A DNA stretch of 64,000 nucleotides from Anaerolineales bacterium (GTDB lineage: Bacteria; Chloroflexota; Anaerolineae; Anaerolineales; Villigracilaceae), in the NCBI GenBank assembly GCA_016934715.1, contig JAFGSI010000011.1:2227-66226 (forward strand). The letters run 5' to 3'. The notes under the pieces were generated by a model that was given only the letters and a program-made list of their open reading frames with translations, did not search any database and was not told the origin of the DNA. Positions 5,186 to 28,675 of the stretch are shown here, piece after piece. Made by a program: the position numbers and the translations under genes. Every line of letters begins with the position of its first letter. Position 1 is the first letter of the stretch.

Positions 5186-6112
5186 ATGCGAAAGATTCTC
5201 GTGGTGCTGGCGCTGCTGACGGGGCTGCTGGTCCCGGCCGGGGCACAGGCCCAGGCGGAGGTTTCCTTCAGCAGCGTCGTGGTGCAGTTGTGGCCGGAAT
5301 ATGACCAGCCAGCCATGCTGGTCATCTATGACTTCATGCTCTCCCCAGACATGCCCCTGCCGACAGTTTTGACTATACGCATTCCGGCTGCGGCCGGCCA
5401 GCCCTTCGTGGTGGCAATCGGCCCGACCCCGGCAACCGTCGCCGACCAGGACGTGATCTACGAGACCTCCCCCGCCGGCGACTGGATCGAAGTGGCGATC
5501 AACATCCCGAACGGCAATCTTGCCGTGCGCCTGGAATACTACGACCCGGACCTCGCCAGGGACGGCGCCGCCCGGCACTACCTCTACACCTGGCCTGGCG
5601 ACCACGCTGCCACCTCGTTCCACGTCAGCTTCCAGGTCCCGGTCGGCGCGACCAGCTTGCAACTCTCCCCGGCCCTGCCTGACGTGGCCAGCGGCAACAA
5701 CCAGCTGACTTACTATGAAGGCGAACTCGGCCCACTGGCCGCCGGCCAGACATACACTCTGAGCGTAGATTACCAGAAGAACAGCAACGCCCTGAGCATC
5801 TCGGGGGCCTCGGTCCAACCGGCCGCACCGCTGGATGGAGATACACCCGGGCGCCTTTCGCTGCCCGAGATCCTGCCCTGGGTGCTGGGCATCCTGGGCC
5901 TGCTGCTGATCATCGGCGGGGTGATCCTGATCGGATCCTGGCAGGGTGGCAAACGGAACAGATCCGGGCGGCCCAAACACCGACCTTCCCGCCGCGCGGC
6001 GGAGACCGAGGCCGACGGCGGCCCGATCTACTGTCCGCAGTGCGGCAAGCGCGCACAACCGAACGACGCCTTCTGCCGGACCTGCGGCTCGCGCCTGCGG
6101 CGCGGCGAATAG
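5186..6112 (+). CDS. Secreted/membrane-anchored hypothetical protein with C-terminal cytoplasmic zinc ribbon
   Basis: Signal peptide MRKILVVLALLTGLLVPAGAQAQA, a late TM segment ILPWVLGILGLLLIIGGVILIG, and a C-terminal IYCPQCGKRAQPNDAFCRTCGSRL. Confidence 0.6.
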   Translation: MRKILVVLALLTGLLVPAGAQAQAEVSFSSVVVQLWPEYDQPAMLVIYDFMLSPDMPLPTVLTIRIPAAAGQPFVVAIGPTPATVADQDVIYETSPAGDWIEVAINIPNGNLAVRLEYYDPDLARDGAARHYLYTWPGDHAATSFHVSFQVPVGATSLQLSPALPDVASGNNQLTYYEGELGPLAAGQTYTLSVDYQKNSNALSISGASVQPAAPLDGDTPGRLSLPEILPWVLGILGLLLIIGGVILIGSWQGGKRNRSGRPKHRPSRRAAETEADGGPIYCPQCGKRAQPNDAFCRTCGSRLRRGE

Positions 6113-6145: not shown

Positions 6146-7660
6146 ATGACCATTCCTCCGATCATCCTGATCTATTTCTTCTACGGCCTGGCCTTCTTCA
6201 GCATGGGACTGCTGGTACTGGTCGAGGGGGGGCGGGCCCTCGACGCCCGCCTGCGGCGAGCGCTGCGCCCGCTGGCCGCCTTCGGCCTGGTCCACGCACT
6301 GCACGAATGGCTGGAGATGTTCGAGGCGATCGCCAGCCTGGACGGCGATCCCCTGCCCGACTGGCTTTTCGGTGTCCGGCTGGCCATGCTGGCCTTTTCA
6401 TTCCTGTCCCTGGGCGCCTTCGGCAGCTACCTGCTGGCAGTCTCGCGCCAGGCCTGGCGCCTGAGCCTGCTGGCGCCGCTCGGGCTGGAGGCTGTCTGGG
6501 TCTTTGGCATCCTGCTGTTGAAGAACCGCTACCCGATCCCCGACCTTTGGACAGTCGCCGACGTCTGGACCCGCTACGCCCTGGCGATCCCCAGCGCCCT
6601 GTTGGCCGCCGTCGGACTGGTCATGCAGCAGCGGGTCTTCCGCCGGGCCGGGCTGGCGACCTTTGGCCGCGATGCCCTGTGGGCAGCCGTCGCCCTGGGC
6701 TGGTACGGGTTGGTCGGCCAGATCTTCGTCCGGGCCTCGGCCCTGCCCCCCTCGAACGTGCTCAACGAGGAGCTGTTCCTGCAAATGTTTGGCATCCCGG
6801 TGCAGCTCTTCCGGGCGGTGGTGGCCGTGCTGGCCTCGGTGTTCATCATGCGCTTCCTGCGCGCTTTCCAGGTCGAGATCGACGGCCAGATTGCCCGCCT
6901 GCAGGAGGAAAAGCTCAGGGAAGCCGAACAGCGCGAGGCCCTGCGCGGCGAGATGGTCAAGCGGGTCATCGACGCCCAGGAATCTGAACGCCAGCGCATC
7001 GCCCGCGAGCTGCACGACGAAACCGGCCAGGCGCTGACCGCCATCGGCCTGGGCCTGCGCGGCCTGACGACCGCACTGCAGAGTGCCCGGCCCCGCAAGG
7101 GGACTGCAGGTCCGTCGCGCGCCGACCAGACCCTGCACCAGCTCCAGAACCTGACCGCCCATTCGCTGACCGAACTGCAGCGCCTGATCGCCGACCTGCG
7201 CCCCTCGCACCTCGACGACCTGGGCCTGCACTCAGCCCTGCGCTGGTACAGCCACGACCTGGGCGAACGGGCCGCAATCAAGGTCGAGGTGGAGTTCAAG
7301 GGCGAGGAACGCGAGCTCCCACCGCAGGTCAAGACCGCCCTGTTCCGCATCTCCCAGGAGGCCCTGACCAATGCCGTCAAACACGCCCTGGCCGATCATG
7401 TCCGGGTCACCCTGTACTACGCCCCCGAGACGGTCTCCTTGCGCATCACCGACGATGGCCAGGGCTTCGATCTGCCGGCTGCCCGCTTGAGCCAGCGTAT
7501 CTCGTGGGGATTAAAAAACATGGAGGAACGGGCCACCCTGCTGGGCGGCCGGTTCACGATCCGTTCGCGGCCCGGCCAGGGCACGACCGTGGAGATCAGC
7601 ATCCCCATCCAGGCCCCACAGGAGGAGAACGATGACGATCCGTCTGCTGCTGGTGGATGA
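6146..7660 (+). CDS. Sensor histidine kinase (HisKA_3/NarX-type) with polytopic N-terminal membrane sensor domain
   Basis: Multiple TM segments are followed by a coiled coil. The H-box is ERQRIARELHDETGQ and the HATPase_c region is DDGQGF...GLKNMEERATLLGG. It is a paralogue of the kinase at 18668..20209. Confidence 0.85.
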   Translation: MTIPPIILIYFFYGLAFFSMGLLVLVEGGRALDARLRRALRPLAAFGLVHALHEWLEMFEAIASLDGDPLPDWLFGVRLAMLAFSFLSLGAFGSYLLAVSRQAWRLSLLAPLGLEAVWVFGILLLKNRYPIPDLWTVADVWTRYALAIPSALLAAVGLVMQQRVFRRAGLATFGRDALWAAVALGWYGLVGQIFVRASALPPSNVLNEELFLQMFGIPVQLFRAVVAVLASVFIMRFLRAFQVEIDGQIARLQEEKLREAEQREALRGEMVKRVIDAQESERQRIARELHDETGQALTAIGLGLRGLTTALQSARPRKGTAGPSRADQTLHQLQNLTAHSLTELQRLIADLRPSHLDDLGLHSALRWYSHDLGERAAIKVEVEFKGEERELPPQVKTALFRISQEALTNAVKHALADHVRVTLYYAPETVSLRITDDGQGFDLPAARLSQRISWGLKNMEERATLLGGRFTIRSRPGQGTTVEISIPIQAPQEENDDDPSAAGG

Positions 7661-8282
7661 CCACCAGGTAGTGCGTTCGGGCCTGCGCATGCTGCTGGCC
7701 AGCGAGAGCGACGTCGAGATCACCTGCGAGGCCGGGACGGCCAGGGAAGCCATCGCCGCCGTGGAAAACTGCCGCCCCGACGTGGTCCTGATGGACATCG
7801 GCCTGCCCGATATGTCGGGCATCGCGGCCACCCGGGCGATCAAGAGCGCCCACCCGGAGGTGGCCGTGGTGGCCCTGACGATCCACGAGGACGAGGAGTA
7901 TTTCTTCAAGATGCTCGAGGCCGGAGCCGGCGGCTACGTCCCCAAGCGAGCCGCGCCGGAGGAGCTGCTGACCGCCATCCGGGCCGCGGCCCGGGGCGAG
8001 GTCTACCTCTACCCGTCGATGGCCAAGCTGCTGGTCAAGGACTTCCTGGCCCAGGAGCGCCCGGAGGAGGGTGTGACTTCGCTCGATGGCCTGACCGATC
8101 GCGAGCAGGAGGTTCTGCGCCATGTGGCCGAGGGCGCCACCAACGACGAGATCGCCGAGATTCTGGTCATCAGCCCGAAAACGGTCGCCCGGCACCGCGA
8201 GAACATCCTGCAGAAACTCAGCCTGCACTCGCGGGCCGAACTGGTGCGTTACGCCATCCGGAAGGGGATCATCAAGGCCTAG
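7632..8282 (+). CDS. Response regulator, NarL/LuxR family
   Basis: Receiver domain IRLLLVDDHQVV...DVVLMDIGLPDMSG plus a LuxR HTH, LTDREQEVLRHVAEGATNDEIAEILVISPKTVARHRENILQKL. It overlaps the end of the kinase gene. Confidence 0.9.
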   Translation: MTIRLLLVDDHQVVRSGLRMLLASESDVEITCEAGTAREAIAAVENCRPDVVLMDIGLPDMSGIAATRAIKSAHPEVAVVALTIHEDEEYFFKMLEAGAGGYVPKRAAPEELLTAIRAAARGEVYLYPSMAKLLVKDFLAQERPEEGVTSLDGLTDREQEVLRHVAEGATNDEIAEILVISPKTVARHRENILQKLSLHSRAELVRYAIRKGIIKA

Positions 8283-8299
8283 CTCCTCGAATCACCTTT

Positions 8300-8319
8300 A
8301 TTGGGTAGATTTACCCAAT
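8300..8319. promoter_or_regulatory. Perfect 8-4-8 palindrome ATTGGGTA-gatt-TACCCAAT; candidate response-regulator operator
   Basis: Read directly from the sequence, 18 nt downstream of the RR stop. The half-site TACCCAA resembles the NarL heptamer TACYYMT. Related ATTGGGC copies lie at 8324-8330 and 8425-8431. Confidence 0.4.
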
Positions 8320-8343
8320 TTTGATTGGGCATCTTTTCACAAT

Positions 8344-8379
8344 CTCCGGACCCACAGGTAGGGTCCGGAGAGTATTTTT
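8344..8379 (+). terminator. Rho-independent terminator after the first two-component operon
   Basis: A 10-bp stem (ctccggaccc / gggtccggag) with a 7-nt loop, followed by agtattttt. Confidence 0.7.
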
Positions 8380-8503
8380 CCTCCGACAGAAGTTGAAACG
8401 TGGGCTGCGGCTCCCACGGCAAAGATTGGGCACCCGCCGAATTGTCTGCGCAGGACGGATCCCGTACACTATAAGTGAAAATCATAACGAAAGGAGCGCT
8501 GCC

Positions 8504-8623
8504 ATGGAAAGCACACTGATGGTCATCCTATTCACGATCGTCCGCCTGGGGGTCCCGATCGGCCTGCTGCTGGCCATCGGGGAGGCGATCCGCCGCCGCA
8601 ACCGCAAGAGCAGCCTTGTGTGA
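8504..8623 (+). CDS. 39-aa single-TM peptide (MESTL paralogue 1)
   Basis: AAGGAG sits 7 nt upstream of the ATG. The product is MESTLMVILFTIVRLGVPIGLLLAIGEAIRRRNRKSSLV. Its first 15 nt are nearly identical to the start of the next gene. Confidence 0.5.
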   Translation: MESTLMVILFTIVRLGVPIGLLLAIGEAIRRRNRKSSLV

Positions 8624-8629
8624 GACAGT

Positions 8630-8956
8630 ATGGAAAGCACGCTGTTTGTCGTTCTCGGTCTGCTGCTGCGGATCGGACTCCCGCTCGGGTTGACGATCCT
8701 GGTCTTTGCCCTGCTGCGCCGGTTGGACCAGCGCTGGCAGGCAGAGGCCAGGGCCTCCGTCCCGGTGGTCCCCGCCTCGCAGAAACCCTGTTGGGAGGTC
8801 AGGGGATGCCCGGAATGCCAAAGGAAGGATTGCCCGGCGGCGAAAAATGCCAGGACGCCCTGCTGGCAGACCTTCCGTTCCCGGGAAGGGACCTTGAAAG
8901 AGGCCTGTCTGGATTGCGACGTTTTCCGCCAGGCACCGCCTCCGGTGCGGGCGTGA
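8630..8956 (+). CDS. Small membrane-anchored Cys-rich protein (MESTL paralogue 2; two CW motifs, 7 Cys)
   Basis: 108 aa. An N-terminal TM segment MESTLFVVLGLLLRIGLPLGLTILVFALL is followed by PCWEVRGCPECQRKDCPAAKNARTPCWQTFRSREGTLKEACLDCDVF. It starts 6 nt after the stop of paralogue 1. Confidence 0.6.
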   Translation: MESTLFVVLGLLLRIGLPLGLTILVFALLRRLDQRWQAEARASVPVVPASQKPCWEVRGCPECQRKDCPAAKNARTPCWQTFRSREGTLKEACLDCDVFRQAPPPVRA

Positions 8957-8984
8957 TTTTTAGCCAAATGAGGAGATGCCGATT

Positions 8985-9926
8985 ATGAACAAACGCGAAC
9001 GTTTTGCCCTGGCAGCGGTTTTCGCCCTGCTGGCCGCGGGTGTGACCCTGGTGATGGTCCAGGCCAAGGCCGAGGCCCCGGCCCCAGCCGTCCAGGAACA
9101 GGAACCCTTGAACTGCTCCGAATGCCACCAGGACTTCCAGATGGAATGGGCCTCGGGGGCCCACTCATCGGCGACCAACGACCCGATCTTCGCCCAGGCC
9201 TGGGCCGATCAGGGTCAGCCCGGTGCCTGCATGGTCTGCCATGTCACCGGTTACGATCCCGGCACCGGCACCTGGGAACAGGACGGGGTGGCCTGCACAG
9301 CCTGCCACAACCCGGTCCCGACCAATCACCCCGAGGAACCCATGCCGGTGCAGGACACAACCGAACTCTGCGGCCAATGCCACAGCGACGCCCGCTTCGG
9401 ATGGCAGGAATGGCAGACCAGCACCCACTACCAGCGCGGCATGGACTGCACGGTCTGCCACGACCCGCACTCGGCCTCGCTCAAGAACGTCGAGGGCCTC
9501 GAGGCCCAAGGCCCCTCCGGCCTGTGCGTCAACTGCCACCGCGACTACAACATGGACTTCCCCTACTCCAATCATGCGATGGCCGGCCTGAACTGCGTCG
9601 ACTGTCACCTGCGCCACTTCGGCTCCTCTGGCGGCCGCACCATCCATACCATGCCCGATCACAGCTTCACCGCCAGCCTGACCTCCTGCACCTCCTGCCA
9701 CGACCGGGAAATGCACGGCCCGACCGATGCCGCAACCGGGGCCGAGATCACGACCCAGGCGGTTGTCCCGGCGACGAACGGCGCACTGGCCGAAGAACCC
9801 GCCCCGGTCAGCCCATACGGCTTCGCCGGCCTGGCCGGCCTGCTCGGGTTGGCTGGCGGCATGGTCCTGGCGCCCTGGTTGGAGCGAGCCTACCGCAAGC
9901 TGTCCCAAAAGGAAAAGTCGTCATGA
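8985..9926 (+). CDS. Octahaem c-type cytochrome with N-terminal signal/anchor and C-terminal TM helix
   Basis: Eight CxxCH motifs: CSECH, CMVCH, CTACH, CGQCH, CTVCH, CVNCH, CVDCH, CTSCH. The C-terminal hydrophobic stretch is GFAGLAGLLGLAGGMVLAPW. I chose the ATG at 8985, 9 nt after GAGGAG; the ORF opens at 8976. Confidence 0.85.
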   Translation: MNKRERFALAAVFALLAAGVTLVMVQAKAEAPAPAVQEQEPLNCSECHQDFQMEWASGAHSSATNDPIFAQAWADQGQPGACMVCHVTGYDPGTGTWEQDGVACTACHNPVPTNHPEEPMPVQDTTELCGQCHSDARFGWQEWQTSTHYQRGMDCTVCHDPHSASLKNVEGLEAQGPSGLCVNCHRDYNMDFPYSNHAMAGLNCVDCHLRHFGSSGGRTIHTMPDHSFTASLTSCTSCHDREMHGPTDAATGAEITTQAVVPATNGALAEEPAPVSPYGFAGLAGLLGLAGGMVLAPWLERAYRKLSQKEKSS

Positions 9927-10693
9927 GCGAAACCAACCTCAACCGTCGTGATTTCCTGAAACTGGCCGGCGTCAGCGTGGCCGCCATCGGTGGGTTGCAG
10001 ATCTACCGCCGGGCGGAGGCCTCCAGCGGAGGCCCGGAGGGCGAGCACCAGTGGGCAATGGTCGTCGACCAGTCCAGGTGCACCGGCTGCGATTACTGCA
10101 CCCTGGCCTGCCGGGCTCACAACGACATCAACCCCGAGATCTCCTGGAACCAGGTCATCGAAACAGGTGCGATCAGCGGCAAGCAGGTCTACCTCGCCCG
10201 GCCGTGCATGCACTGCGAACACGCCCCGTGTGTGGATGTCTGCCCGGTGCAGGCCAGCACCTACCGCCCGGACGGCATCGTGCAGATGGATTACGATCGC
10301 TGCATCGGCTGCCGCTACTGCGAGGTGGCCTGCCCCTACGGGGCGCGCTCCTTCAACTGGGAGGCCTTCACCGGTCGCAACCCGGCCGTCCCGCAGTGGG
10401 GGCAGCCCGAGGTCGCCCGTCGCCCGCGCGGCGTGGTCGAGAAGTGCTCCTTCTGCTCCCAGCGCATCGACCGCGGCCTGGCGCTCGGCCTGACCCCCGG
10501 CATCGATCCCGACGCCACCCCGGCCTGCGTGGTACGCTGCCCGACCGGGGCGCGCATTTTTGGCGATCTGAAGGACCCCGAATCAAATGTCAGCCAGCTC
10601 CTGCGTGGGCATGCCTCTTTCCGCCTGCGCGAAGACCTGGGCACCAGGCCGCGGGTCTACTACCTGCCGCCCAATGGCTCCCCGGAGGCCTGA
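9923..10693 (+). CDS. 4Fe-4S ferredoxin-type iron-sulfur subunit (NrfC/HmcB/PsrB/DmsB family) with Tat signal
   Basis: MSETNLNRRDFLKLAG is a twin-arginine signal. The Cys clusters are CTGCDYCTLAC, CMHCEHAPCVDVCP, CIGCRYCEVACP and CSFC..CVVRCP. An ATGA overlap links it to the upstream cytochrome stop. Confidence 0.85.
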   Translation: MSETNLNRRDFLKLAGVSVAAIGGLQIYRRAEASSGGPEGEHQWAMVVDQSRCTGCDYCTLACRAHNDINPEISWNQVIETGAISGKQVYLARPCMHCEHAPCVDVCPVQASTYRPDGIVQMDYDRCIGCRYCEVACPYGARSFNWEAFTGRNPAVPQWGQPEVARRPRGVVEKCSFCSQRIDRGLALGLTPGIDPDATPACVVRCPTGARIFGDLKDPESNVSQLLRGHASFRLREDLGTRPRVYYLPPNGSPEA

Positions 10694-10694
10694 G

Positions 10695-11954
10695 ATGAAG
10701 AAGATCGCCAAACTGAAACTGACCCCCTGGATGGCCTGGGTCGGCCTGCTGGTCACGGTCATCGCCGCCGGTGTGGCAGCCGGGCTGATGGTCTTCGTGA
10801 AGGGGCTCTCGCTCACCAATCTGACCGACATGGTGCCCTGGGGCCTGTGGATCACGATCGACCTGTCGTCGATCGCCATCAGTGCCGGCGCCTTCAGCCT
10901 GTGTGCGGCTGTCTACCTGCTGGGCCTCAAGCGCTATCAACCGTTGGCTCGCACGGCGACCTTCATCGGCCTGATCGGCTACACCATGGCCCTGTTGACC
11001 CTGCTGATGGACATTGGCCGCCCCGACCGATTCTGGCACGCGGTGGTCTACTGGAACCGGCACTCGCTGCTCTGGGAAGTGACCATGTGCGTCACGCTTT
11101 ACCTGGCCGTGCTGGCGCTGGAAGCGATGCCGATCTTTGCCCAGTTCGAGTGGCTGCGTACCCGCCTGCCCAGACTGGCCGCCAGGATGGAACGCGTCCA
11201 CCACTACGCACCCTACCTGGCGATCGTCGGGTTGGGGCTGTCGATGCTGCACCAGTCCTCGCTGGGGGCGGTCTACGGCGTGCTCAAGTCACGCCCGTTG
11301 TGGTACCGGCCCGACATCTCGATCCTGTTCATCGTCTCGGCCGTGGCCGGCGGGATGGCCCTGACCGTCTTCGCCTCGATGCTCTCGGCCCGCATCACCC
11401 GGCGTGCCAACATCGACGACGGGCTGCTCGAGCGGGTGGCGTATTTCATCGGCTGGATCCTGGTCGGCTACCTGTATTTCCGCTTCTGGGACGCCCTGTC
11501 AATGACTTACACTTACGAACCCGGCCGGACCGAGGGCCTGCGCATGCTGACCAGCGGCCCGTTCGCCTTCAACTTCTGGATCGGCGAGATGCTGCTGGGG
11601 GCGGTGGTTCCGATCCTCCTGCTGCTGCGCCGCCGGACCCGTCAGGTTCCCTTCTGGCGCATGCTGGCCCTGCTGCTGGTCGTCGGCGGCGTGGTGGCCT
11701 ACCGCTGGGACACCAACCTGTCCGGCCAGTTGATCGTGCTGTCCTATCTGCCGGGTGAACCGGCGGTCGCCTACACCCACTACGTCCCTTCACTGATCGA
11801 GTTCGCCAGCGGGGCGGGCGTGGTGGCCTACGGCCTGCTGGCCTTCTCGCTCGGCGTGCGCTACCTCGGGGTGGTCAACCACGAAGCAGCCGCCGAGGAG
11901 CACTTCGAGGAGATGCCGGCCCGCGAGGCCCTCCCGGCCCCGACCGGAGATTGA
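10695..11954 (+). CDS. NrfD/PsrC/HmcC-family polytopic membrane quinone-interacting subunit
   Basis: 419 aa and highly hydrophobic. VPWGLWITIDLSSIAISAGAF and DIGRPDRFWH are typical NrfD-family motifs. GGAGG lies 6 nt upstream of the ATG. Confidence 0.8.
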   Translation: MKKIAKLKLTPWMAWVGLLVTVIAAGVAAGLMVFVKGLSLTNLTDMVPWGLWITIDLSSIAISAGAFSLCAAVYLLGLKRYQPLARTATFIGLIGYTMALLTLLMDIGRPDRFWHAVVYWNRHSLLWEVTMCVTLYLAVLALEAMPIFAQFEWLRTRLPRLAARMERVHHYAPYLAIVGLGLSMLHQSSLGAVYGVLKSRPLWYRPDISILFIVSAVAGGMALTVFASMLSARITRRANIDDGLLERVAYFIGWILVGYLYFRFWDALSMTYTYEPGRTEGLRMLTSGPFAFNFWIGEMLLGAVVPILLLLRRRTRQVPFWRMLALLLVVGGVVAYRWDTNLSGQLIVLSYLPGEPAVAYTHYVPSLIEFASGAGVVAYGLLAFSLGVRYLGVVNHEAAAEEHFEEMPAREALPAPTGD

Positions 11955-11973
11955 AGTCCCGGATGCACTGACA

Positions 11974-12010
11974 GATCGGGACGCAGCGTCGCTGCGTCCC
12001 GATCTTGTTA
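11974..12010 (+). terminator. Stem-loop terminator between convergent cytochrome operons
   Basis: gatcgggacgcagc / gctgcgtcccgatc forms a ~13-14 bp stem, followed by ttgtta. Confidence 0.6.
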
Positions 12011-12050
12011 CCCTGCTCCTTGCAGAAATCGCTGAACGGATCCAAGAAAA

Positions 12051-13748: not shown

Positions 13749-13828
13749 GTGCGCCACCTCCAGAATAAATGGAGCGGGCTTCCAGGCCCTTGGCGCGGCC
13801 TGGAGGCCGGATCCTACCTGTAATTATA

Positions 13829-15055
13829 TTACCGTTCCGGGGCCCCGGCGTCGATCCAGTCGCGGACCCGCTCCAGATCTGCGGAACGCAATGTGGCAGG
13901 ATGGCTGCCCTCTGCCTGGACGAGGACCAGCAGGCTGTTGATGCTGTCACCCGGCAGGATCACCGCTCCGTTACTGCCGCCCTGCAGGGCCTCGGCATAG
14001 CTGGTCAGCGACAGGCCAGTCGGTGCGCGGCTGGCATGGCAGATGCCGCATTGCTGCTGGAACAGGGGCCCGATGGCGGCCTCCCAGGTCAGGGGACCCG
14101 GAGCCGGGGTCGGGAGCGGGGTTGGGGTCTGCGGGACGAAGATCTCGATCTGGGTTTCGGGCGGGGCGATCGTGGCGGTTGTCTCGGCGCCGACGAAGCC
14201 GTAGACGCCGAACAGCATGGCAACCGTCAACAGGCCGGCGATCGGCCAGTAGATGCGCTGGCGACGGCGCAGGGTCCGGGAGTCGACCGGCCGCTCGGCC
14301 AGCCCGGCCTTGATGTCGGCCAGTTCGAGAGGATGCTCGTGCAGCATCTCCTCCTCGCTCAGCCTGCCGGTGAACATGCTCTTGTTGAACCTGCGGATGT
14401 GGACACTGTACATGTGCCAGATGAAGATGGCTGCCACCGCCAGCAGGGCCTCGCCGCCATGGGCCGCCTTGGCTGCCGGGATGGCCTCGCCGGGCAGGAT
14501 CCGGGCAGTGGCGATCGGGTTCCACATCATGAAGCCGGTCAGGCCCATGATGATCGTGCCCCACACCAGGGCCCAGTATTCCAGCTTCTCTTCGAAAGTG
14601 TAGCGGCCCATCTGCGGACGGGTCCTGGCAACCCCCAGGTTGTACAGGAAAGCCTGCCAGGCATCCTTGACATCCTTGATGACGGGCAGCATCGTCAGCG
14701 GGACACGCAGGACGAAGATCTTGGAACCGATGTCGATGATGTGGTAGATGGTCAAAAGCATCAGCACCACGGCGAAAACGTGGTGGAGGCTGCGGGTCAT
14801 TTCGATGCCGCCGAAGAAGCGGATCATCGCCTGGGCCCAGCCGGCCAGCGGAAACTTCTGTGGCAGGCCGGTGAGCCCCAGCAGTGAGAAGGAGGTCAGG
14901 AGCAGGAAGTGGGCAATCCGCTGAGTCCAGTGGAAGCGCGCGTAGACCGCCGGCTGCTTCTTGGCCGGGGCTTTCGTCCTTCCGATCGCCTTCCCCTTGG
15001 CGGTCCCTTTCTTCACTGCCGGGGCCGCCGGTTTGGGAGTGGATTTCTTGCTCAT
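13829..15055 (-). CDS. b-type cytochrome (FdnI/HydC-like membrane dihaem family) fused to a C-terminal PSCyt1-like c-type monohaem module
   Basis: A Lys-rich N-terminus is followed by RFHWTQRIAHFLLLTSFSLLGLTGL and further TM helices with conserved His residues. The C-terminus is GPLFQQQCGICH...ILPGDSINSLL...WIDAGAPER. An ATGA overlap links it to the upstream gene. Confidence 0.75.
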   Translation of the reverse strand: MSKKSTPKPAAPAVKKGTAKGKAIGRTKAPAKKQPAVYARFHWTQRIAHFLLLTSFSLLGLTGLPQKFPLAGWAQAMIRFFGGIEMTRSLHHVFAVVLMLLTIYHIIDIGSKIFVLRVPLTMLPVIKDVKDAWQAFLYNLGVARTRPQMGRYTFEEKLEYWALVWGTIIMGLTGFMMWNPIATARILPGEAIPAAKAAHGGEALLAVAAIFIWHMYSVHIRRFNKSMFTGRLSEEEMLHEHPLELADIKAGLAERPVDSRTLRRRQRIYWPIAGLLTVAMLFGVYGFVGAETTATIAPPETQIEIFVPQTPTPLPTPAPGPLTWEAAIGPLFQQQCGICHASRAPTGLSLTSYAEALQGGSNGAVILPGDSINSLLVLVQAEGSHPATLRSADLERVRDWIDAGAPER

Positions 15056-16212
15056 ACGCGCTTCGCTCCTTTACGACGGTCGATCAACCGGCGGACAAAG
15101 TCGCTGATGACGAAGAGGATCATCGGGCCGAGCACACCAGGGATGAAGAATTTGTAGAACAGGTTGACATAGTAAACCAGCGGGTAATTCTGCGAATCGG
15201 GGATGTAATGGCTCATCCAGGCGTCGGGGAAGTTCGCGCTGGCATCGGGGTGGCACTGCTGGCAGCGAATCAGGATGTTCTCCTTCATTGCCAGGCCGTT
15301 GACCGGATCATCCACCGGGGCGATGGCGTGGATGCCGTGGCAGTCATAGCAGACCGGCTTGTTGGTCGGCTGGTCAGGCGAGGTGCTTTCGAACAGGGTG
15401 ACGGTCGTGCCGTGGAAGTCGGCCACGTAGGTGTTCAGGACCTGGGTCGAGATGCCGTACGGCTGCATGCGCTCGGGATCCGTGTGGCAGCCGGCACACA
15501 ACAGCGGCGAGTTGAGCCGGAATTCGTTGGTCGTCGGATCGCCGATGTCGTGGACGCCGTGGCAGTCCATGCAGGTCGGGACATCGGGATTGCCCTCCCC
15601 GGTCAGGGCCGCGCCGTGTACGCTGTGCGCATACTGATCGTAGATGGTGCTGTGGCAGCGGGCACAGGTCTGCGGAATGTGCAGGCGCGCCTCCGGAAGC
15701 AGGGTGCCACTGCGGTCGGTGATCGGGGTCTGGGTGTGAGGGTTGTGGCAGTCGGTGCAGACGGCGGCGTTGGTGTTCCCGCCCGCCAGGGCTCGCTGGT
15801 GGACCGAGTCGAGGGTCGCGTCGTACTGTTCGGCGTGGCAGGCCTGACAGACAGTGTACATCTCGAGGGTGTATTCGCGCGCGCTGCGGGCAGTCAGTTC
15901 GGGGTGCGGGAACTGGGAAATGGTGGTATGACAATCTGTACAGGGCAGGTTGCTGTGGACCGAGTCGTCGTAGTGGGCCGGGTCGATGGTCAGGACCAGG
16001 GCCCCCCCGTCGGGCAGCGGGCGCTGCTGGCCGGGCCGGCCATGACAGGTCAGGCAGGCCTCGTTCTGGGGCAGGTCCGCCGGGAGGGGAGAGGGGGAGG
16101 CTCCCGCCGGCCTGGTCAGGATCGCCAGGACCGTCCCCAGCAGCGCGATCCCGACCACGAAGATCGGGATGCGCAGCCTGCGGGTGGAAGAATGGGTACC
16201 GGGTGCGTGCAT
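15052..16212 (-). CDS. Nonahaem c-type cytochrome with N-terminal anchor and C-terminal TM helix
   Basis: Nine CxxCH motifs: CLTCH, CTDCH, CQACH, CTDCH, CARCH, CMDCH, CAGCH, CYDCH, CQQCH. The C-terminal hydrophobic stretch is FFIPGVLGPMILFVISDF. I chose the ATG at 16212, 6 nt after GGGAG. Confidence 0.85.
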   Translation of the reverse strand: MHAPGTHSSTRRLRIPIFVVGIALLGTVLAILTRPAGASPSPLPADLPQNEACLTCHGRPGQQRPLPDGGALVLTIDPAHYDDSVHSNLPCTDCHTTISQFPHPELTARSAREYTLEMYTVCQACHAEQYDATLDSVHQRALAGGNTNAAVCTDCHNPHTQTPITDRSGTLLPEARLHIPQTCARCHSTIYDQYAHSVHGAALTGEGNPDVPTCMDCHGVHDIGDPTTNEFRLNSPLLCAGCHTDPERMQPYGISTQVLNTYVADFHGTTVTLFESTSPDQPTNKPVCYDCHGIHAIAPVDDPVNGLAMKENILIRCQQCHPDASANFPDAWMSHYIPDSQNYPLVYYVNLFYKFFIPGVLGPMILFVISDFVRRLIDRRKGAKRV

Positions 16213-16287
16213 TGCGTTCTCCCTTGGGAAATTTGGATCACGAATGAGTGCTGGAAAAACACGGCGGGCCTGGGATGGGCCGTCCCC

Positions 16288-16331
16288 AACCAAAAGAGGA
16301 GAAGCGAGGGCAGGCGGCCTGCCCTCGCTTC
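16288..16331 (-). terminator. Rho-independent terminator after the decahaem lipoprotein gene
   Basis: A near-perfect palindrome gaagcgagggcaggc g gcctgccctcgcttc. On the minus strand it is followed by TCCTCTTTTGG. Confidence 0.65.
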
Positions 16332-16344
16332 CGATCGAACTGGA

Positions 16345-18468
16345 TTACGGCCGGGTCATGGCAGACACGTCGACGTTCATATAGACGAGCGTGTCGTACA
16401 GGACCTGGATCACGTAGCGGCCGTTGTGGGCAAAGGCGCCCGGATCCTTCTGGAAGTACTGGTAGTTGTAAGCCGCGATCAGCAGGCGCGGGGACCAGGT
16501 GGAGTACCCACCCTCGCCCTCGTCGACCAGGCCGTTGGCATTGGCATCCGCAAAGAAGTACGGATAAGCGGTCGGGCTGTAAGCGATCGGTGTGCTAAGC
16601 GTATCCGCCGCATAATCCTGGATGGCCAGGTAGAGCAAGTCGGCCATGGTAGCGATCTCCTGGTCGAGCGGCTCGGCAGCGTCGCCGTCACCGTCGTAAT
16701 CGATGGCATTGGCGGTCATGCGGATCTCGCGCACGTCGCTGATGCCGGTGTGGCAGGTGGCGCAGGTCGAGAGAGCAATTTCCAGGGAGTGGGCATCGTG
16801 GCAGGACAGGCAGGTGTTGAGGTTGCCGCCCATACTGGCCGGGTGATCATTCTGACCGAAGTACGCATTGCCGGCGAACTGGTACATGCCCTGGGCTTCG
16901 TCGCCGAAGAGCGTGGCGCCGGCCGCAAAGTAGTGGATGTTGCGGAAACGGATGGACGCCGAAACCTCATCCGCCGGCGTGCTGCCGATCACACGGTTGA
17001 CGCTGGCCATCGACTCGCGCCCCTGGTGGCAGGTGATGCACAGGTTGCTGTCGGCGCCCTCTCCGAAGGTGACGGACAGGCCGCTCGGCATGCTGACCGA
17101 ATCAACCGTGTAGCGGTTGGGCCAGTTGGTCTCGTCGTGGCAGGTCGAGCATTGGAAGCCGTTGGAGGCCGGCTGGGCGATCGTGCTGCCCGCATTGGCC
17201 AGGAACATGGGCAGGCCGGTGGCGGTGTGACAGCGAACGCAGCCGTTCGGTACGGTGCCGAAATCGGGATCGCCGTCCCAGTGGCGGAAGGGCTCGGTGT
17301 TGCCGGCGAAGTGCCCGGCATCCTGGCGGCGCATGGCGCTCATATCGATCGGGTTGGACAGCTGGGTATTCAGGTCAGCCAGCGAGTCGAACAGCAGCTG
17401 GATGATGTACTTGTTGCCATGGGCGAAAGCCCCTGGGTCCTTGACCGACAACTGGTAGTTGTAGGCGGCGGCAAGCAGGCGCGGGGTCCAGGCAGTGAAC
17501 CGATTGGGGACGGTGGCCTCATCTTCATCCAGTATGCCATTGGCATTGGTGTCGATGAAGAAGTACGGGTAGGCGTCCGGCGAGTAGGCAACCGCCGTGC
17601 CGGCAATCTCAACGGCGTAAGCCTGGATGCCGGCCAGGAGCGCTGCCTGCATGCCCTGGATCTCGTAGTACATGCCTTCCGTGAGGTTGCCGTCGCCATC
17701 GTAGTCGACCGTGGAGGAGGGCTCGCGCACGTCGCGCAGGGCCTCGACCGTATCGACCTCGTGGCAGAACGAGCAGGTCTCGAGCTGGATTTCGAGGGTG
17801 TGCGAATCGTGGCAGTCCACGCAGGTGCTGACGCCCTCGACGTGCTCATAGCGGGAGTCGTAGGACATGCCTTCGTACTGGTAGCCGCCTCTGGCCTGGC
17901 CGCCATAGAGGGTGGCCGCCGCGGCGAAATAGTGGATGTTCAGGAAGCTGAGGTCGGCGCTGACCGTATCAGGAGCCATGCCGGCGGTGGCTTCCGCCAC
18001 GCTCCCGCCAGACTCACGTCCCTGGTGGCAGACCATGCAGCGAGCCTCAGGGCCGAGGCCGGTGACGGTCACGCCGGACGGGAAGGTGACACTGGAGAGA
18101 GTCTGGGTGGCATCATTGTGGCAGGTGGTGCAGGAGATGACGCCGCCGGGTGCCGCAACGTCAGCATCCACCATGCCGGCTGCGCTGCCGTCACCGCCCA
18201 GGAAGTCAACGTAACCAGCCGGGCTGTGGCAGCGGGCGCAGTCCGCCGGAATGACGGCCGGATCGTCCCCATCCCAGTGAACGAAGGCTTCCGCCGAGGC
18301 ATCGGCGTGGGCTGAGCCGGCCCAAGCCGCCAGGAAGGGAGGTTCGGCTGCCGGAGCAGCCACCTGCCCGCCGGTCATCTCTTCGGTGGCGCCGCTTCCG
18401 CAGGCGACCACGACCGTCGCCAAAAGCAGCAAACCACCGATCAGGAAGAGCAGTCTCTTTATGGACAT
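16345..18468 (-). CDS. Decahaem c-type cytochrome lipoprotein built from two pentahaem repeats
   Basis: Signal and lipobox MSIKRLLFLIGGLLLLATVVVAC. Ten CxxCH motifs: CARCH, CTTCH, CMVCH, CVDCH, CSFCH, CVRCH, CSTCH, CITCH, CLSCH, CATCH. The two ~330-aa halves align, e.g. NIHYFAA..., DYDGDG..., YPYFF.D.NANG, AAYNYQ, DPGAFAH. I chose the ATG at 18468, 9 nt after GAGGAG. Confidence 0.85.
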   Translation of the reverse strand: MSIKRLLFLIGGLLLLATVVVACGSGATEEMTGGQVAAPAAEPPFLAAWAGSAHADASAEAFVHWDGDDPAVIPADCARCHSPAGYVDFLGGDGSAAGMVDADVAAPGGVISCTTCHNDATQTLSSVTFPSGVTVTGLGPEARCMVCHQGRESGGSVAEATAGMAPDTVSADLSFLNIHYFAAAATLYGGQARGGYQYEGMSYDSRYEHVEGVSTCVDCHDSHTLEIQLETCSFCHEVDTVEALRDVREPSSTVDYDGDGNLTEGMYYEIQGMQAALLAGIQAYAVEIAGTAVAYSPDAYPYFFIDTNANGILDEDEATVPNRFTAWTPRLLAAAYNYQLSVKDPGAFAHGNKYIIQLLFDSLADLNTQLSNPIDMSAMRRQDAGHFAGNTEPFRHWDGDPDFGTVPNGCVRCHTATGLPMFLANAGSTIAQPASNGFQCSTCHDETNWPNRYTVDSVSMPSGLSVTFGEGADSNLCITCHQGRESMASVNRVIGSTPADEVSASIRFRNIHYFAAGATLFGDEAQGMYQFAGNAYFGQNDHPASMGGNLNTCLSCHDAHSLEIALSTCATCHTGISDVREIRMTANAIDYDGDGDAAEPLDQEIATMADLLYLAIQDYAADTLSTPIAYSPTAYPYFFADANANGLVDEGEGGYSTWSPRLLIAAYNYQYFQKDPGAFAHNGRYVIQVLYDTLVYMNVDVSAMTRP

Positions 18469-18667
18469 TTCGTGATTCTCCTCAAATGTTTTTGGGGGCG
18501 AACAGTGGAAAAGGGGATTGGGTGGGAGCACCTCCTTTTGGGCCAATAGCCCCAAGCAAGATCTTGTGAAGAACAACCATATTGGGTTTATAACCCCAAC
18601 GACGATTAAAATCAAGTTAATTATTAATGACAATCTCGTGACATATATCACTCAATTCGCATGACAA

Positions 18668-20209
18668 ATGGCCATAAATCTTCAGGGAGTTGGTGTAAAA
18701 TACCCAATAGAGTCGCTCCTCATGTCCGGGCAAGCATTCGATCAACTGCTTTACTTCATCTACTTTGTCTATGGACTGGCCTTTTTCGGCATGGGCCTGA
18801 CCATGGCACTCGAATCGGGCCGTTCGCCGGCCCTGGCGGAGGCCCGTCTCCTGCGGCCCCTGGCCGCCTTCGGCCTGATCCACGGCTCCCACGAGTGGCT
18901 GGAGGCCTACCTGCTCCAGGCCCACGCCACCGGGGCTGCTCTGCCGGGCTGGCTGGACTGGGCCCGCTGCACAATCCTGGTGACCTCCTTCCTGTTCCTG
19001 CTCAACTACGGGATCCGCACCTTCCAGACACCCGGGTACAGACCGTTGCTCGGGATGCGCCTGGGAATCGCCGTCCTCGGGATCTACAGCCTGGTCATCC
19101 TGGCCAGCGCCATGCTGACCTACTGGAACGGCGAGGTGCCCTGGGCCCGCCTGCTCGACAGCCTGGCCCGTTACCTGCTGGCCGTGCCGGGAGCGGCCCT
19201 GGCAGCCCTGGCGCTGCGCTTCGAGTCGGACGAAGCCAGGAGCCGCGACCGCCGAACACTGTCGCTCTCCCTGACGGTGGCCGCGGCCGGCTTCGGGGTC
19301 TACAGCCTGACCCAGGTCTTCGTCCCGCCGCTGGAGATGGCCCCGGCCAGCTTCCTCAACACGCTCAGCTTCCAGAGCCTGGCCGGCTTCCCGATCCAAC
19401 TGGTGCGCTCGGCGATGGCGGTCATGATCACCCTCAGCCTGGCCCGTGCCACCCAGGAGGTCGAAAAGGAACGCCAGCAGAAGCTGGTGACCGCCCAGCA
19501 GGCCCGCCTGGAGGCCCTCGAGCAGGTCCAGGCCGAACTGACCGGACGCGAGACCTTGCGGCGTGAACTGCTGCGCCATACCGTCCGGGCCCAGGAAGAG
19601 GAGCGCGGCCGGATCGCTCGCGAGCTGCACGACGAAACCGCCCAGGTCCTGGCCGCCTTCGGCCTCGACCTGGCCACCCTGCAGACCATGCTCCCGGTCC
19701 GTCCGGACGCGCAGGCCCTGGTCGGCAGGCTGCAGGCGCACAGCCGGGAGATATCGCAGAGCCTCTACCGCCTGGTCCACGATCTGCGCCCGGCCCAACT
19801 GGACGATCTGGGTCTGGTCCCCGCCCTGGACTACCTGGGCGAGCGTGCGGCAGCCAAGGGACTGGAGCTCCGCCAGCAGATCGTGGGCGAGGTCCGCCGG
19901 CTGGAGCCCGTGATCGAGACAGTGCTCTTCCGGGTCGCCCAGGAGGCGCTCAACAACGTGGCCCGCCACGCCAGCACGAACCAGGCCGAGATTTGCCTGG
20001 TGTACGAGACTCAGGAAGTGACCCTGTGGGTTCGCGACCCGGGCCGCGGATTCAATCCCACCCAGTCCTTCATTCCACCGCGCGGCTGGGGCCTGGCCGG
20101 GATGCGCGAACGGGTCGAATCAGTCGGCGGACACTTAAAAGTTACCTCCGCCCCAGAGGAGGGAACCACCGTCGAGGTGGCCATCCCGGTCTTTGACTTG
20201 ATTCCCTGA
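18668..20209 (+). CDS. Sensor histidine kinase (HisKA_3 type), paralogue of 6146..7660 with the same membrane sensor domain
   Basis: YGLAFFGMGL...LRPLAAFGLIHGSHEWLE matches YGLAFFSMGL...LRPLAAFGLVHALHEWLE in the first kinase. The H-box is ERGRIARELHDETAQ. The start is uncertain; an alternative ATG lies at 18722. Confidence 0.85.
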   Translation: MAINLQGVGVKYPIESLLMSGQAFDQLLYFIYFVYGLAFFGMGLTMALESGRSPALAEARLLRPLAAFGLIHGSHEWLEAYLLQAHATGAALPGWLDWARCTILVTSFLFLLNYGIRTFQTPGYRPLLGMRLGIAVLGIYSLVILASAMLTYWNGEVPWARLLDSLARYLLAVPGAALAALALRFESDEARSRDRRTLSLSLTVAAAGFGVYSLTQVFVPPLEMAPASFLNTLSFQSLAGFPIQLVRSAMAVMITLSLARATQEVEKERQQKLVTAQQARLEALEQVQAELTGRETLRRELLRHTVRAQEEERGRIARELHDETAQVLAAFGLDLATLQTMLPVRPDAQALVGRLQAHSREISQSLYRLVHDLRPAQLDDLGLVPALDYLGERAAAKGLELRQQIVGEVRRLEPVIETVLFRVAQEALNNVARHASTNQAEICLVYETQEVTLWVRDPGRGFNPTQSFIPPRGWGLAGMRERVESVGGHLKVTSAPEEGTTVEVAIPVFDLIP

Positions 20210-20229
20210 TCACAGGTTGAAGGGAGAAG

Positions 20230-20928
20230 GTGATGAAAAAGATCCGCCTGATGCTGGTCGACGACCACGACGTGGTGCGCGCCGGCCTGAAGTCCTACCT
20301 GCAGACCCAGGAAGACTTCGAGGTCATTGCTGAGGCCAGCAACGGCCAGGAGGCGCTCGAACGCACCCGGGATGCCTGCCCGGATGTGATCCTGATGGAT
20401 ATCACCATGCCCGGAATGGATGGGATGGAGGCCACCCGCCAGATGCGGGCCCGCAACCCGCAGTGCCTGATCCTGGCCCTGACCGTCCACGATGACAAAC
20501 AGTACTTCATGCAGATGCTGGCCGCGGGTGCCTCCGGGTACATCACCAAACAGGCTGCCCCCGACGAACTGATCGCTGCCATCCACACCATCGCCGCTGG
20601 CAACGTTTATCTCCAGCCGGCGCTGGCCCGCTGGCTGCTGGAAGATTACCAGCGCCTGGCCGGCCAGGCCGACCTGGTCGAACCGGCCTCCCCGCTCGCG
20701 GCAGAGCAGGATACCATGGTCGACCTGCAGGTGCTCAGCCAGCGCGAACGCCAGGTGCTCGAACTGGTGGCGGAGGGCCATAACAATAACGAGATCGGCG
20801 ATCGCCTGGGCCTGAGCCCCAAGACGATCGCCCGCCATCGCGAGCGCATCATGAACAAACTCAACATGCACTCGCGCACCGAACTGGTCAAGTTTGCCAT
20901 CCGCACGGGGCTGGTGCAGTTACATTAG
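20230..20928 (+). CDS. Response regulator, NarL/LuxR family
   Basis: Receiver domain IRLMLVDDHDVV...DVILMDITMPGMDG plus a LuxR HTH, LSQRERQVLELVAEGHNNNEIGDRLGLSPKTIARHRERIMNKL. Confidence 0.9.
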   Translation: MMKKIRLMLVDDHDVVRAGLKSYLQTQEDFEVIAEASNGQEALERTRDACPDVILMDITMPGMDGMEATRQMRARNPQCLILALTVHDDKQYFMQMLAAGASGYITKQAAPDELIAAIHTIAAGNVYLQPALARWLLEDYQRLAGQADLVEPASPLAAEQDTMVDLQVLSQRERQVLELVAEGHNNNEIGDRLGLSPKTIARHRERIMNKLNMHSRTELVKFAIRTGLVQLH

Positions 20929-21498: not shown

Positions 21499-21584
21499 TT
21501 TGACAGATGTGACGGCTTTCGAGGTACGAGCGGAACTCCCGCTGGGAACTTCGCGAAGCCGTTCCTTTGTTTTAAGGAGTCGCC

Positions 21585-23591: not shown

Positions 23592-23617
23592 GCCAGAACC
23601 CCAAAAGGCAAACCGGC

Positions 23618-24133: not shown

Positions 24134-24141
24134 GGAATCGA

Positions 24142-24732: not shown

Positions 24733-24735
24733 CTG

Positions 24736-25221: not shown

Positions 25222-25248
25222 ATACGGGATGCTCTCAAGGATTTTTGG

Positions 25249-27183: not shown

Positions 27184-27214
27184 ACCGTTCCGCCCGTCGA
27201 AAATCGTTGCTCTC

Positions 27215-27906
<692 letters not shown>

Positions 27907-27910
<4 letters not shown>

Positions 27911-28623: not shown

Positions 28624-28675
28624 CCTGCCGCCGATCCAATTATTGGTCGTTCCTCCCCCCTACGAAAGGATGCTG

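Follow-up and report, generated by a model that had tools for sequence, protein, structure and literature searches.

A conserved multihaem cytochrome island of an Anaerolineales bacterium as a candidate quinol-to-surface electron conduit

The 64-kb stretch of contig JAFGSI010000011.1 of an Anaerolineales bacterium (the window, taken as a whole for the wider neighbourhood) contains at positions 6146-20928 an island encoding five c-type cytochromes with 8, 9, 1, 9 and 10 haem sites, the first set of nine consisting of seven CxxCH motifs together with one CX3CH and one CX4CH. The island is organized in three different putative quinol:cytochrome modules, namely an octahaem-NrfC-NrfD unit, a nonahaem cytochrome with a cytochrome b, and a nine-haem cytochrome of the ImcH/NrfH type, to which a decahaem lipoprotein is added. 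A preliminary description of this DNA had proposed the same layout: motif counting reproduced its haem tally (8+9+1+9+10) exactly, the split into three modules and a lipoprotein agrees with the Pfam and NCBIfam families, and the paralogous NarL-type pairs that it placed on both flanks are 38% identical over the full length of the kinases (HK1 and HK2) and 46% identical between the response regulators (RR1 and RR2). The System I maturation genes announced directly after the island were found as well (CcmA, B, C, E, F and H with a thioredoxin-like CcmG). All the genes listed there are present at the coordinates given, some of them having been assigned to wrong open reading frame (ORF) positions, and the suspected origin in the Chloroflexota was confirmed by an identical decahaem protein recorded from an 'Anaerolineales bacterium' metagenome-assembled genome (MAG).

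The guanine-plus-cytosine (GC) content of the window is high (61-68%), making raw ORF lists noisy, and the real genes were singled out by GC content per codon position and motif counts (Table 1). Composition is uniform along the window and the rest of it encodes housekeeping functions (panB, panE, a 2-oxoacid dehydrogenase complex, nusA, infB, truB, ribF, and thyX), which places the island in the core chromosome with no recent acquisition; it is most likely a chromosomal, vertically inherited respiratory locus of this bacterium. The block running from HK1 to the NrfD-like gene on the forward strand converges with the genes of the decahaem, nonahaem, cytochrome b and ImcH-like proteins, which lie on the reverse strand in this order of transcription. 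All haem motifs, including the two atypical ones, are 92-100% conserved in homologues from other species and therefore CX3CH and CX4CH are real haem sites.

Table 1. Genes and sequence features of the cytochrome island and its flanks (window coordinates).
Feature	Position	Strand	Remarks
Zn-ribbon protein, left of the island	5186-6112	+	Signal peptide, large extracytoplasmic part, one helix
HK1 sensor histidine kinase	6146-7660	+	Multi-pass membrane sensor domain, then HisKA_3 (1.4e-14) and HATPase_c (1.1e-14) in Pfam
HK1 sensor domain	6146-6925	+	
RR1, NarL/LuxR-type response regulator	7632-8282	+	Response_reg 1.2e-27, GerE 2.3e-21
Perfect palindrome TTGGGTAGATTTACCCAA, candidate operator	8301-8318		Upstream of the octahaem operon; zero mismatches to TTGGGTN6ACCCAA
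Terminator-like hairpin	8343-8371	+	After the HK1-RR1 operon; 11-bp perfect stem, then T-run
39-aa ORF, coding status uncertain	8504-8623	+	Apparently repeats the N-terminus of the following Cys-rich gene, cut short
Cys-rich 108-aa membrane-anchored protein	8630-8956	+	First conserved gene of the octahaem operon
Octahaem cytochrome c	8976-9926	+	8 CxxCH, signal peptide, C-terminal membrane anchor
NrfC/DsrO-type ferredoxin	9923-10693	+	Twin-arginine translocation (TAT) signal, four 4Fe-4S motifs
NrfD-family integral membrane quinone-interacting subunit	10695-11954	+	Pfam NrfD 3.5e-34
Perfect 16-bp inverted repeat	11973-12005		Between convergent operons; probably a bidirectional terminator
ImcH/NrfH-type cytochrome c	12051-13748	-	9 haem sites, PSCyt1 monohaem domain at the end
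PSCyt1 copy of the ImcH-like protein	12051-12320	-	
FdnI/HydC-type dihaem cytochrome b	13829-15055	-	Fifth helix and C-terminal PSCyt1 monohaem c domain, 1 CxxCH
PSCyt1 copy of the cytochrome b	13829-14095	-	
Nonahaem cytochrome c	15052-16212	-	9 CxxCH, C-terminal membrane anchor
Strong hairpin	16300-16332	-	15 pairs, 10 GC, T-rich tail; between decahaem and nonahaem genes
Decahaem lipoprotein	16345-18468	-	10 CxxCH, two ~330-aa pentahaem repeats
Decahaem C-terminal motif	16345-16356	-	(M/L)-T-R-P
Divergent decahaem/HK2 promoter region	18538-18707		Three TTGGG-N8-CCCAA-type palindromes at 18538, 18582, 18690
Second palindrome GTGACATATATCAC	18638-18651		In the decahaem/HK2 divergent promoter
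HK2 sensor histidine kinase	18668 (probably 18722)-20209	+	HisKA_3 kinase core; 495 aa in public gene call
HK2 sensor domain	18668-19465	+	
RR2, NarL/LuxR-type response regulator	20230-20928	+	Response_reg and GerE recorded on identical gene in L001
System I cytochrome c maturation cluster	21019-29374	+	Pfam CcmB, Cytochrom_C_asm, ABC_tran, AhpC-TSA/Redoxin, Cytochrome_CBB3
CcmE	21019-21498	+	Pfam CcmE recorded on identical gene
CcmF	21585-23591	+	
CcmH	23618-24133	+	
Thioredoxin-like CcmG	24142-24732	+	
Zn-ribbon protein in the Ccm cluster	24736-25221	+	
644-aa dihaem cytochrome c	25249-27183	+	
CcmA	27215-27910	+	
CcmB	27907-28623	+	
CcmC	within ORF 28499-29374	+	Real start probably downstream of ccmB

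Relatives of the decahaem gene are widespread in the Anaerolineae. At least 313 stretches in contigs from one genome per species encode a relative, nearly all of them from Anaerolineae, Caldilineae or Ardenticatenia, and the carriers include the cultured Thermanaerothrix solaris as well as MAGs assigned to Litorilinea aerophila, Bellilinea, Levilinea, and Longilinea. The identical protein, with the same neighbours, is also found on a Logan assembly contig (L001). Co-conservation, the lack of which was to refute the preliminary description, was followed by mapping all the island proteins with tblastn onto 80 fetched loci (given below by their L numbers). L002 and L080 reproduce the whole gene order, and L023, L056, L003, L030, and L081 nearly all of it: HK1, RR1, the Cys-rich protein, octahaem, NrfC and NrfD converge with the ImcH-like, cytochrome b, nonahaem and decahaem genes, and this latter block diverges from HK2, RR2, CcmEFH and a dihaem cytochrome. 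Elsewhere the modules are shuffled yet kept together, and the preliminary description therefore passes this check. Of the 42 loci whose flanks extend over the full 10 kb, 60% have the nonahaem and cytochrome b genes near the decahaem gene, 43% the ImcH-like gene, 36% a two-component pair, 33% Ccm genes, and 29% NrfCD.

The decahaem protein carries the lipobox VVAC (a lipobox-like motif is present in 81 of 105 relatives) and is a tandem duplication of a pentahaem module of ~330 residues, the two repeats being 43.7% identical (E 9e-92). Each repeat contains five CxxCH, six invariant additional His outside these motifs and the sequences CMxCHQGRxS, NIHYFAA, DYDGDGD, and KDPGAFAH; no CxxCK motif occurs in the protein. 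Neither phmmer nor a 105-sequence profile detected sequence relatives in the PDB, and the profile showed no sequence similarity to NrfA, OTR, MccA, or HAO. The AlphaFold2 model computed from the 105-sequence alignment is largely helical and confident (predicted local distance difference test, pLDDT, 91.7; predicted template modelling score, pTM, 0.87). When compared to the PDB with Foldseek, OcwA ranked first (E 6e-3, probability 1.0, template modelling score, TM, 0.31) followed by NrfA enzymes at E>2, and the model of a single repeat (pLDDT 93) retrieved NrfA only, weakly (E 0.47, TM up to 0.43); the E-values to NrfA for the two models span 0.5-7. Structures of MtrC, OmcA, and UndA were absent from the Foldseek matches of both models. 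Membership in the MtrC/OmcA/UndA group was rejected, since the PF22113 MtrC/MtrF domain scored 29.3 bits, under its cut-off of 30, and TIGR03507 gave no match. The decahaem proteins thus form an unnamed, widespread family whose fold, as judged from the models, is at best distantly NrfA/OcwA-like.

OcwA, with which the monoderm Thermincola potens carries out terminal reduction at its surface, has a fold related to NrfA, c554 and MccA, and reduces nitrite and hydroxylamine. In its model the decahaem protein likewise has a pentahaem core and long helices, and both come from single-membrane bacteria; however, the two lack detectable sequence similarity, and the ten haems of the decahaem protein are arranged as two equal repeats, in contrast to the nine of OcwA that are divided into a c554-like and an NrfA-like part. 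The decahaem protein is, moreover, a lipoprotein with DYDGDGD motifs resembling calcium loops. With MtrC and OmcA of Shewanella it shares ten haems on a lipoprotein, two pentahaem groups split by non-haem domains and a presumed surface role, while its non-haem parts are helical instead of beta-barrels and an MtrAB porin partner is missing. In a library of 50%-identity representatives the family comprises 404 clusters at E<=1e-30 and 961 at E<=1e-10; more than 4,500 of 8,000 scored candidates match at E<=1e-5, and the best 120 matches are 47-70% identical to the query, nearly all covering at least 90% of it. Relatives carry one, two, three or more pentahaem repeats, and the occurrence of the module in one, two or three copies is typical of wires. 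The module was also seen in three-repeat proteins with 14-15 haems (for example in Candidatus Abyssubacteria), in single-repeat matches of ~360 residues and in fusions of up to 1,958 residues. The C-terminal motif (Table 1) is nearly invariant in the family, with R706 and P707 conserved, which may point to a signal for sorting, to contact with a partner or to a structural function.

The ImcH-like cytochrome has a single hydrophobic helix (residues 23-41) and its first haem site, CGTACH (residues 55-60), lies beside this helix and is followed by Thr and Met. The CX3CH motif, M62 and K96 are invariant in 25 homologues. An atypical CX3CH beside the membrane domain is typical of ImcH homologues, and the homologue of Anaerolinea thermophila has a single helix (Zhong and Shi, PMC6295460). 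In NrfH the Met of CxxCHxM is the ligand of haem 1 and an essential Lys, on which K173 of ImcH superposes, is located ~35 residues further; in the ImcH-like protein a conserved Lys lies ~36 residues past the haem-1 His, comparable to K82 of NrfH and K173 of ImcH. From this spacing, M62 and K96 appear to be positionally equivalent to residues of the NrfH quinol site, and the protein seems to carry the features that characterise a site oxidising quinol on the outer side of the membrane. It matches Pfam Cytochrom_NNT (29.8 bits, cut-off 24.1) and PSCyt1, NrfH in the PDB (chain 2j7a_C, E 3.3e-10) and the NrfH model TIGR03153 (E 6.7e-16). Compared to ImcH of Geobacter sulfurreducens, it shares the succession of membrane helix, atypical CX3CH and further CxxCH, and differs in having one helix instead of three, nine haem sites, among them a conserved CX4CH, instead of seven, a Met behind the first motif, which is a trait of NrfH (the model of ImcH has His/Gln), and an additional C-terminal PSCyt1 monohaem domain. 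Given the single helix, the nine sites, and a TIGR03153 score (58.6 bits) below the equivalog cut-off of 134.2, it is a divergent relative of the family, neither NrfH nor an orthologue of Geobacter-type ImcH. NrfH/ImcH-type proteins are quinol dehydrogenases in every characterised case, and ImcH is electroneutral with proton release outside.

The second module is formed by the nonahaem cytochrome and the cytochrome b, the stop of the former overlapping the start of the latter by 4 nt (15052-15055). In 38 homologues the nine CxxCH of the nonahaem protein are all conserved together with nine extra His, and hydrophobic segments span residues 15-33 and 351-369. In Pfam the cytochrome b falls into Ni_hydr_CYTB (4.7e-12, 46.5 bits, cut-off 30.1) and PSCyt1, and it aligns to Escherichia coli FdnI (1kqf_C, E 1.5e-8) with all four haem-b His positions matched. 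It has a strongly basic N-terminus and a fifth helix ahead of the c-type PSCyt1 domain, and as a consequence of this helix the domain must face outward. The PSCyt1 domains in which the cytochrome b and the ImcH-like protein end share 47% identity (E 6e-20), and their presence in two modules suggests a common exit point, that is, the same electron-receiving partner. The two copies are appended to otherwise unrelated quinol modules, and among the cytochrome b homologues the domain is present in only ~70%.

A comparable arrangement is known in CbcL, which combines a periplasmic c domain with nine bis-His haems and a HydC/FdnI-type dihaem b, and a family related to CbcBA was mentioned in Chloroflexi genomes (Joshi et al.). 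As in CbcL, a nine-haem c part of all-bis-His type is joined in the island with a HydC/FdnI-type dihaem b, and the gene order (c, then b) is that of the CbcL domains; unlike in CbcL, a single polypeptide, the two parts are separate genes. With CbcBA the island shares a c subunit that has a gene of its own and is anchored by its C-terminus. It differs in the fifth helix and PSCyt1 domain of its b subunit, and in its regulator, which is a NarL-type pair instead of the sigma-54-dependent BccR. The relation of this split bc module to CbcL/CbcBA is at the level of architecture and family.

In the third module the octahaem cytochrome has hydrophobic segments at residues 10-28 and 284-302, and eight invariant CxxCH and eight conserved extra His in seven homologues; it gave weak hidden Markov model matches of the NrfB, DmsE and NetB-like types. 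Its stop overlaps the start of the NrfC-like gene. In NCBIfam the ferredoxin passes the DsrO model (220.9 bits, cut-off 200), stays below those of QrcC (183.6/400) and NrfC (137/378), and is also close to ArrB and TtrB, with TAT_signal and Fer4 families recorded in Pfam. The NrfD-like subunit matches QrcD best (229 bits, cut-off 570) and NrfD with 56/348, and in the same test of NrfCD-type complexes the HmcC model reached 162/550 bits. Families of the molybdopterin type, DsrMK, and NrfA had no match among the window genes in Pfam or NCBIfam. Membership in the Dsr complex was rejected despite the DsrO score, as no DsrMKJP homologues were seen among the window genes, and identity with Qrc, Hmc, or ACIII was discarded because of sub-threshold scores and missing partner subunits (QrcB, ActB). 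Precedents of multihaem-NrfC-NrfD quinol dehydrogenases in extracellular electron transfer are NetBCD of Aeromonas, which is established in this role for Mtr-dependent electron export, and Cbc4 of Geobacter (CbcS, CbcT, and CbcU). Like these and Qrc of Desulfovibrio, the island combines in one operon a membrane-anchored multihaem c, a TAT-type four-cluster ferredoxin and an NrfD-family subunit; it differs in having eight haems (NetB/NrfB, CbcS, and QrcA have five, four and six, respectively), a C-terminal octahaem anchor, a conserved Cys-rich membrane protein upstream and, relative to Qrc, no molybdopterin-family subunit of the QrcB type.

The gene for this Cys-rich protein adjoins octahaem-NrfCD in 11 other species (L002, L003, L023, L024, L028, L031, L039, L044, L056, L080, and L081). 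The protein has one N-terminal helix, a basic RRLDxRWQ and the pattern PCW-x5-C-x6-8-C-x8-9-PCW-x13-14-C-x2-C, and found no match in Pfam (even at E<=10) or NCBIfam. Its charge distribution suggests a cytoplasmic metal- or cluster-binding domain, and it may be a sensor or an assembly factor. The 39-aa ORF in front of it shares direct repeats of 26 and 22 nt with 8630-8676 (81-82% identity); its translation has the same hydrophobic start (MESTL...) and stops after ~25 repeated codons, so that it looks like the remnant of a partial tandem duplication.

With a HisKA_3 kinase and a REC-GerE regulator, the pairs have the make-up of NarL/LuxR-type two-component systems. The sensor domains of both kinases (N-terminal ~250-260 residues) lack any Pfam match even at E<=10 and have in common a conserved LRPLAAFGL-H-x2-HEWLE. 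A site for sensing haem, metal or quinone is suggested by two His and two Glu that lie within a helix of the sensor or close to it. A perfect palindrome precedes the octahaem operon, and three others with one or two mismatches to TTGGGT-N6-ACCCAA are located in the divergent decahaem/HK2 promoter region (Table 1). Four of the five matches to this palindrome in the 64 kb fall in the two island promoter regions, compared to 1.57 expected in the whole window. Palindromes are kept at orthologous positions in seven of ten examined loci with a kinase-regulator pair (L002, L003, L023, L030, L031, L039, and L080), situated between RR1 and the Cys-rich gene (L003, L023, and L031), in the HK2-decahaem intergenic region (L002, L003, L023, L030, and L080) or upstream of the decahaem gene (L039), and the five examined loci without such a pair had none adjoining the decahaem gene. 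The palindrome at 8301 could be a mere RNA terminator stem, but its equivalents at 18538-18707 sit between divergent gene starts, where a terminator would be of no use, for which reason an operator role is preferred. The half-sites resemble the DosR/DevR box, TTSGGGACTWWAGTCCCSAA, a resemblance that serves as a lead and not as a test; DosR is a regulator of the NarL family. The second palindrome of the divergent promoter, GTGACATATATCAC, resembles sites of the CRP/FNR family and may mark a second regulator. Related GTGAC-N4-GTCA(C/T) palindromes were also observed at the corresponding place in L002, L023, and L080.

The gene content, cofactor motifs, family memberships, co-conservation and common palindrome described above are the observations from which we infer a topology, partner contacts, a direction of flow, an acceptor and a mode of regulation. 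The interpretation we favour, with somewhat better than even chances, is that the island encodes a regulated conduit for the export of electrons from quinol to the cell surface, its direction and acceptor being presumed. Electrons of the menaquinol pool would cross the cytoplasmic membrane to the lipid-anchored decahaem protein on the outer cell face and from there reach acceptors that lie outside the cell or hardly permeate into it, for example Fe(III)/Mn(IV) minerals, humics, electrodes, or partner cells. Three gateways, all of them alternative quinol dehydrogenases, would converge on this protein: the ImcH/NrfH-type cytochrome, with haem 1 beside the membrane, could oxidise quinol on the outer side; the FdnI-like dihaem b could pass electrons across the membrane to the nonahaem c; and the octahaem-NrfC-NrfD unit could act like NetBCD or Cbc4. 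The decahaem protein, with two pentahaem copies rich in bis-His haems, would be a wire or a terminal reductase. Chloroflexota of this class are considered single-membrane cells, and in such a cell an elongated lipid-anchored decahaem protein could reach the surface in the absence of a porin.

In Geobacter the potential window of operation becomes lower from ImcH to CbcL and on to CbcBA, and the growth yield falls with it. By analogy, the modules of the island may serve acceptors of differing redox potential with differing energy yield, the ImcH-like one being used for high-potential acceptors and the FdnI-like one driving electrons outward at the expense of the membrane potential, which would allow the use of low-potential acceptors. 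The two NarL-type systems might switch on the operons via the DosR-box-like palindrome and the adjacent Ccm system would attach the 37 c-type haems. A broader version is tentatively put forward, with less than even chances, according to which the island would represent a class-wide machinery of extracellular or interspecies electron transfer in the Anaerolineae, based on unnamed modular surface cytochromes with pentahaem repeats, three quinol gateways resembling those of Geobacter and differing in energetic "gear", a new redox sensor kinase embedded in the membrane and a DosR-like operator.

Several observations weigh against a conduit for electron export. No wall-spanning component was identified. 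The best match of the NrfD-like subunit, QrcD, belongs to a quinone reductase, and the direction of flow cannot be read from the sequence. Comparison by BLASTP with two garbled CbcL fragments gave colinear and non-significant alignments (E 0.21 and 10). The fold likeness of the decahaem protein to OcwA/NrfA is weak (TM 0.31 for the whole model, E only 0.47 for the single repeat), and each repeat offers its five haems six conserved His outside the motifs, as well as the invariant CHQGR and NIHYF, which together could form an Arg/Tyr/His catalytic pocket as in NrfA. All three modules occur together near the decahaem gene in 12% of the 42 loci, and the decahaem gene stands alone in 24%. The family also has members among bacteria related to fermenters and aerobes known in culture (Bellilinea, Levilinea, Longilinea, and Litorilinea), making a role other than metal respiration possible.

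Some of these features would be accounted for by an Nrf-derived reductase for a soluble substrate (nitrite, hydroxylamine, sulfite, polysulfide or similar), in which the decahaem protein would be a tandem NrfA-like enzyme and the NrfH-like and NrfB-C-D-like modules its donors. The only structural neighbours of the decahaem protein are OcwA, itself able to reduce nitrite and hydroxylamine, and NrfA enzymes; the island holds both classical types of donor, NrfH and NrfBCD; and each repeat keeps one conserved His beyond the five distal ligands together with the invariant Arg of CHQGR and His-Tyr of NIHYF. However, the conserved His suffice for ligation of all haems as bis-His, the CxxCK motif is missing, the 105-sequence profile found nothing in common with NrfA, OTR, MccA, or HAO, and the Foldseek E-values to NrfA are 0.5-7. 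A module copy number varying from one to three or more would be unusual for an enzyme active site, and three parallel quinol modules exceed the usual need of one soluble-substrate reductase; we therefore regard this enzyme as unlikely.

Quite unlikely, in our opinion, is a chain working inward, with the surface decahaem protein taking electrons from an outside donor, such as Fe(II), a cathode, humics in reduced form, or a syntrophic partner, and the Qrc-like and FdnI-like modules reducing menaquinone and conserving energy by a redox loop. Cytochromes b of the FdnI type normally reduce quinone at the cytoplasmic side (Fdn-N), and it is to FdnI that the island cytochrome b aligns, as the NrfD-like subunit does best to the menaquinone reductase QrcD. 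According to the literature, the Chloroflexota isolate Ardenticatena maritima gives cathodic as well as anodic current and the multihaem conduits Mtr and Mto are reversible. But the QrcD score is far under its cut-off and QrcB is absent, the NrfH/ImcH-type proteins characterised so far are all quinol dehydrogenases, and the closest functional analogues (ImcH, CbcL, CbcBA, and NetBCD) all export electrons. Finally, that the modules are functionally separate neighbours, kept near Ccm only for haem attachment and forming no single conduit, would agree with their variable order and content between species, with the shares of 12% and 24% given above and with the position of the octahaem-NrfCD operon on the strand opposite the decahaem operon, but it is very unlikely in view of the adjacency of the decahaem, nonahaem and cytochrome b genes through many rearrangements, the single palindrome type that marks the promoters of both operons and is kept at orthologous positions, the paralogous regulators flanking both operons and the PSCyt1 exit domain of identical type grafted onto two different modules.

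Every type of module in the island has a known counterpart. The statement of the preliminary description that the island matches no named complex was overstated in this respect, since its modules parallel ImcH, CbcL/CbcBA and Cbc4 of Geobacter and NetBCD of Aeromonas. In searches of open-access papers and bioRxiv preprints the island was not found described as a unit, nor was the decahaem family, the exit domain common to two modules or the operator. These sources offer general statements on the richness of Anaerolineae in multihaem cytochromes and on their possible extracellular electron transfer, and one experimental study, made in Ardenticatena, that deals with another cytochrome.

In anaerobic digesters, activated sludge, sediments, and aquifers the Anaerolineae rank with the most abundant bacteria, and their richness in multihaem cytochromes has often been read as hinting at extracellular electron transfer, with no specific pathway defined before. 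The locus provides a concrete, conserved and testable candidate, with a defined gene set in the cultured Thermanaerothrix solaris, whose strain 4228-RoL (L005) has the decahaem, nonahaem and cytochrome b genes, and the decahaem gene in Litorilinea aerophila, and supplies a terminal cytochrome family with a confident structural model along with predicted regulator binding sites. The logic of three gateways of Geobacter (ImcH, CbcL, CbcBA/Cbc) would recur here, rebuilt, in a single-membrane phylum, which bears on the evolution of electron export and on its recognition in metagenomes. If the class-wide machinery exists as tentatively put forward, it would explain the abundance of these filamentous bacteria in digesters, sediments, and anode biofilms.

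Among the minor features of the locus, the strong hairpin between the decahaem and nonahaem genes (Table 1) is a possible attenuator or terminator that could, as predicted from its sequence, raise the decahaem transcript above those of the downstream genes. Rfam detected no RNA family anywhere in the window. Two proteins with the same short terminal Zn-ribbon motif bracket the island, one in front of HK1 and the other within the maturation cluster. The Ccm gene order recurs in L002, L023, L030, L037, L080, and L081. The 644-aa dihaem cytochrome c of this cluster combines two cytochrome c domains of class I with a long stretch lacking haem and a helix at the C-terminus; it is an unusual passenger in a maturation operon, and its position inside the cluster, between the CcmH/G and the CcmA/B/C genes, is kept in L002, L004, L023, L030, L037, L080, L081, L060, and L069.

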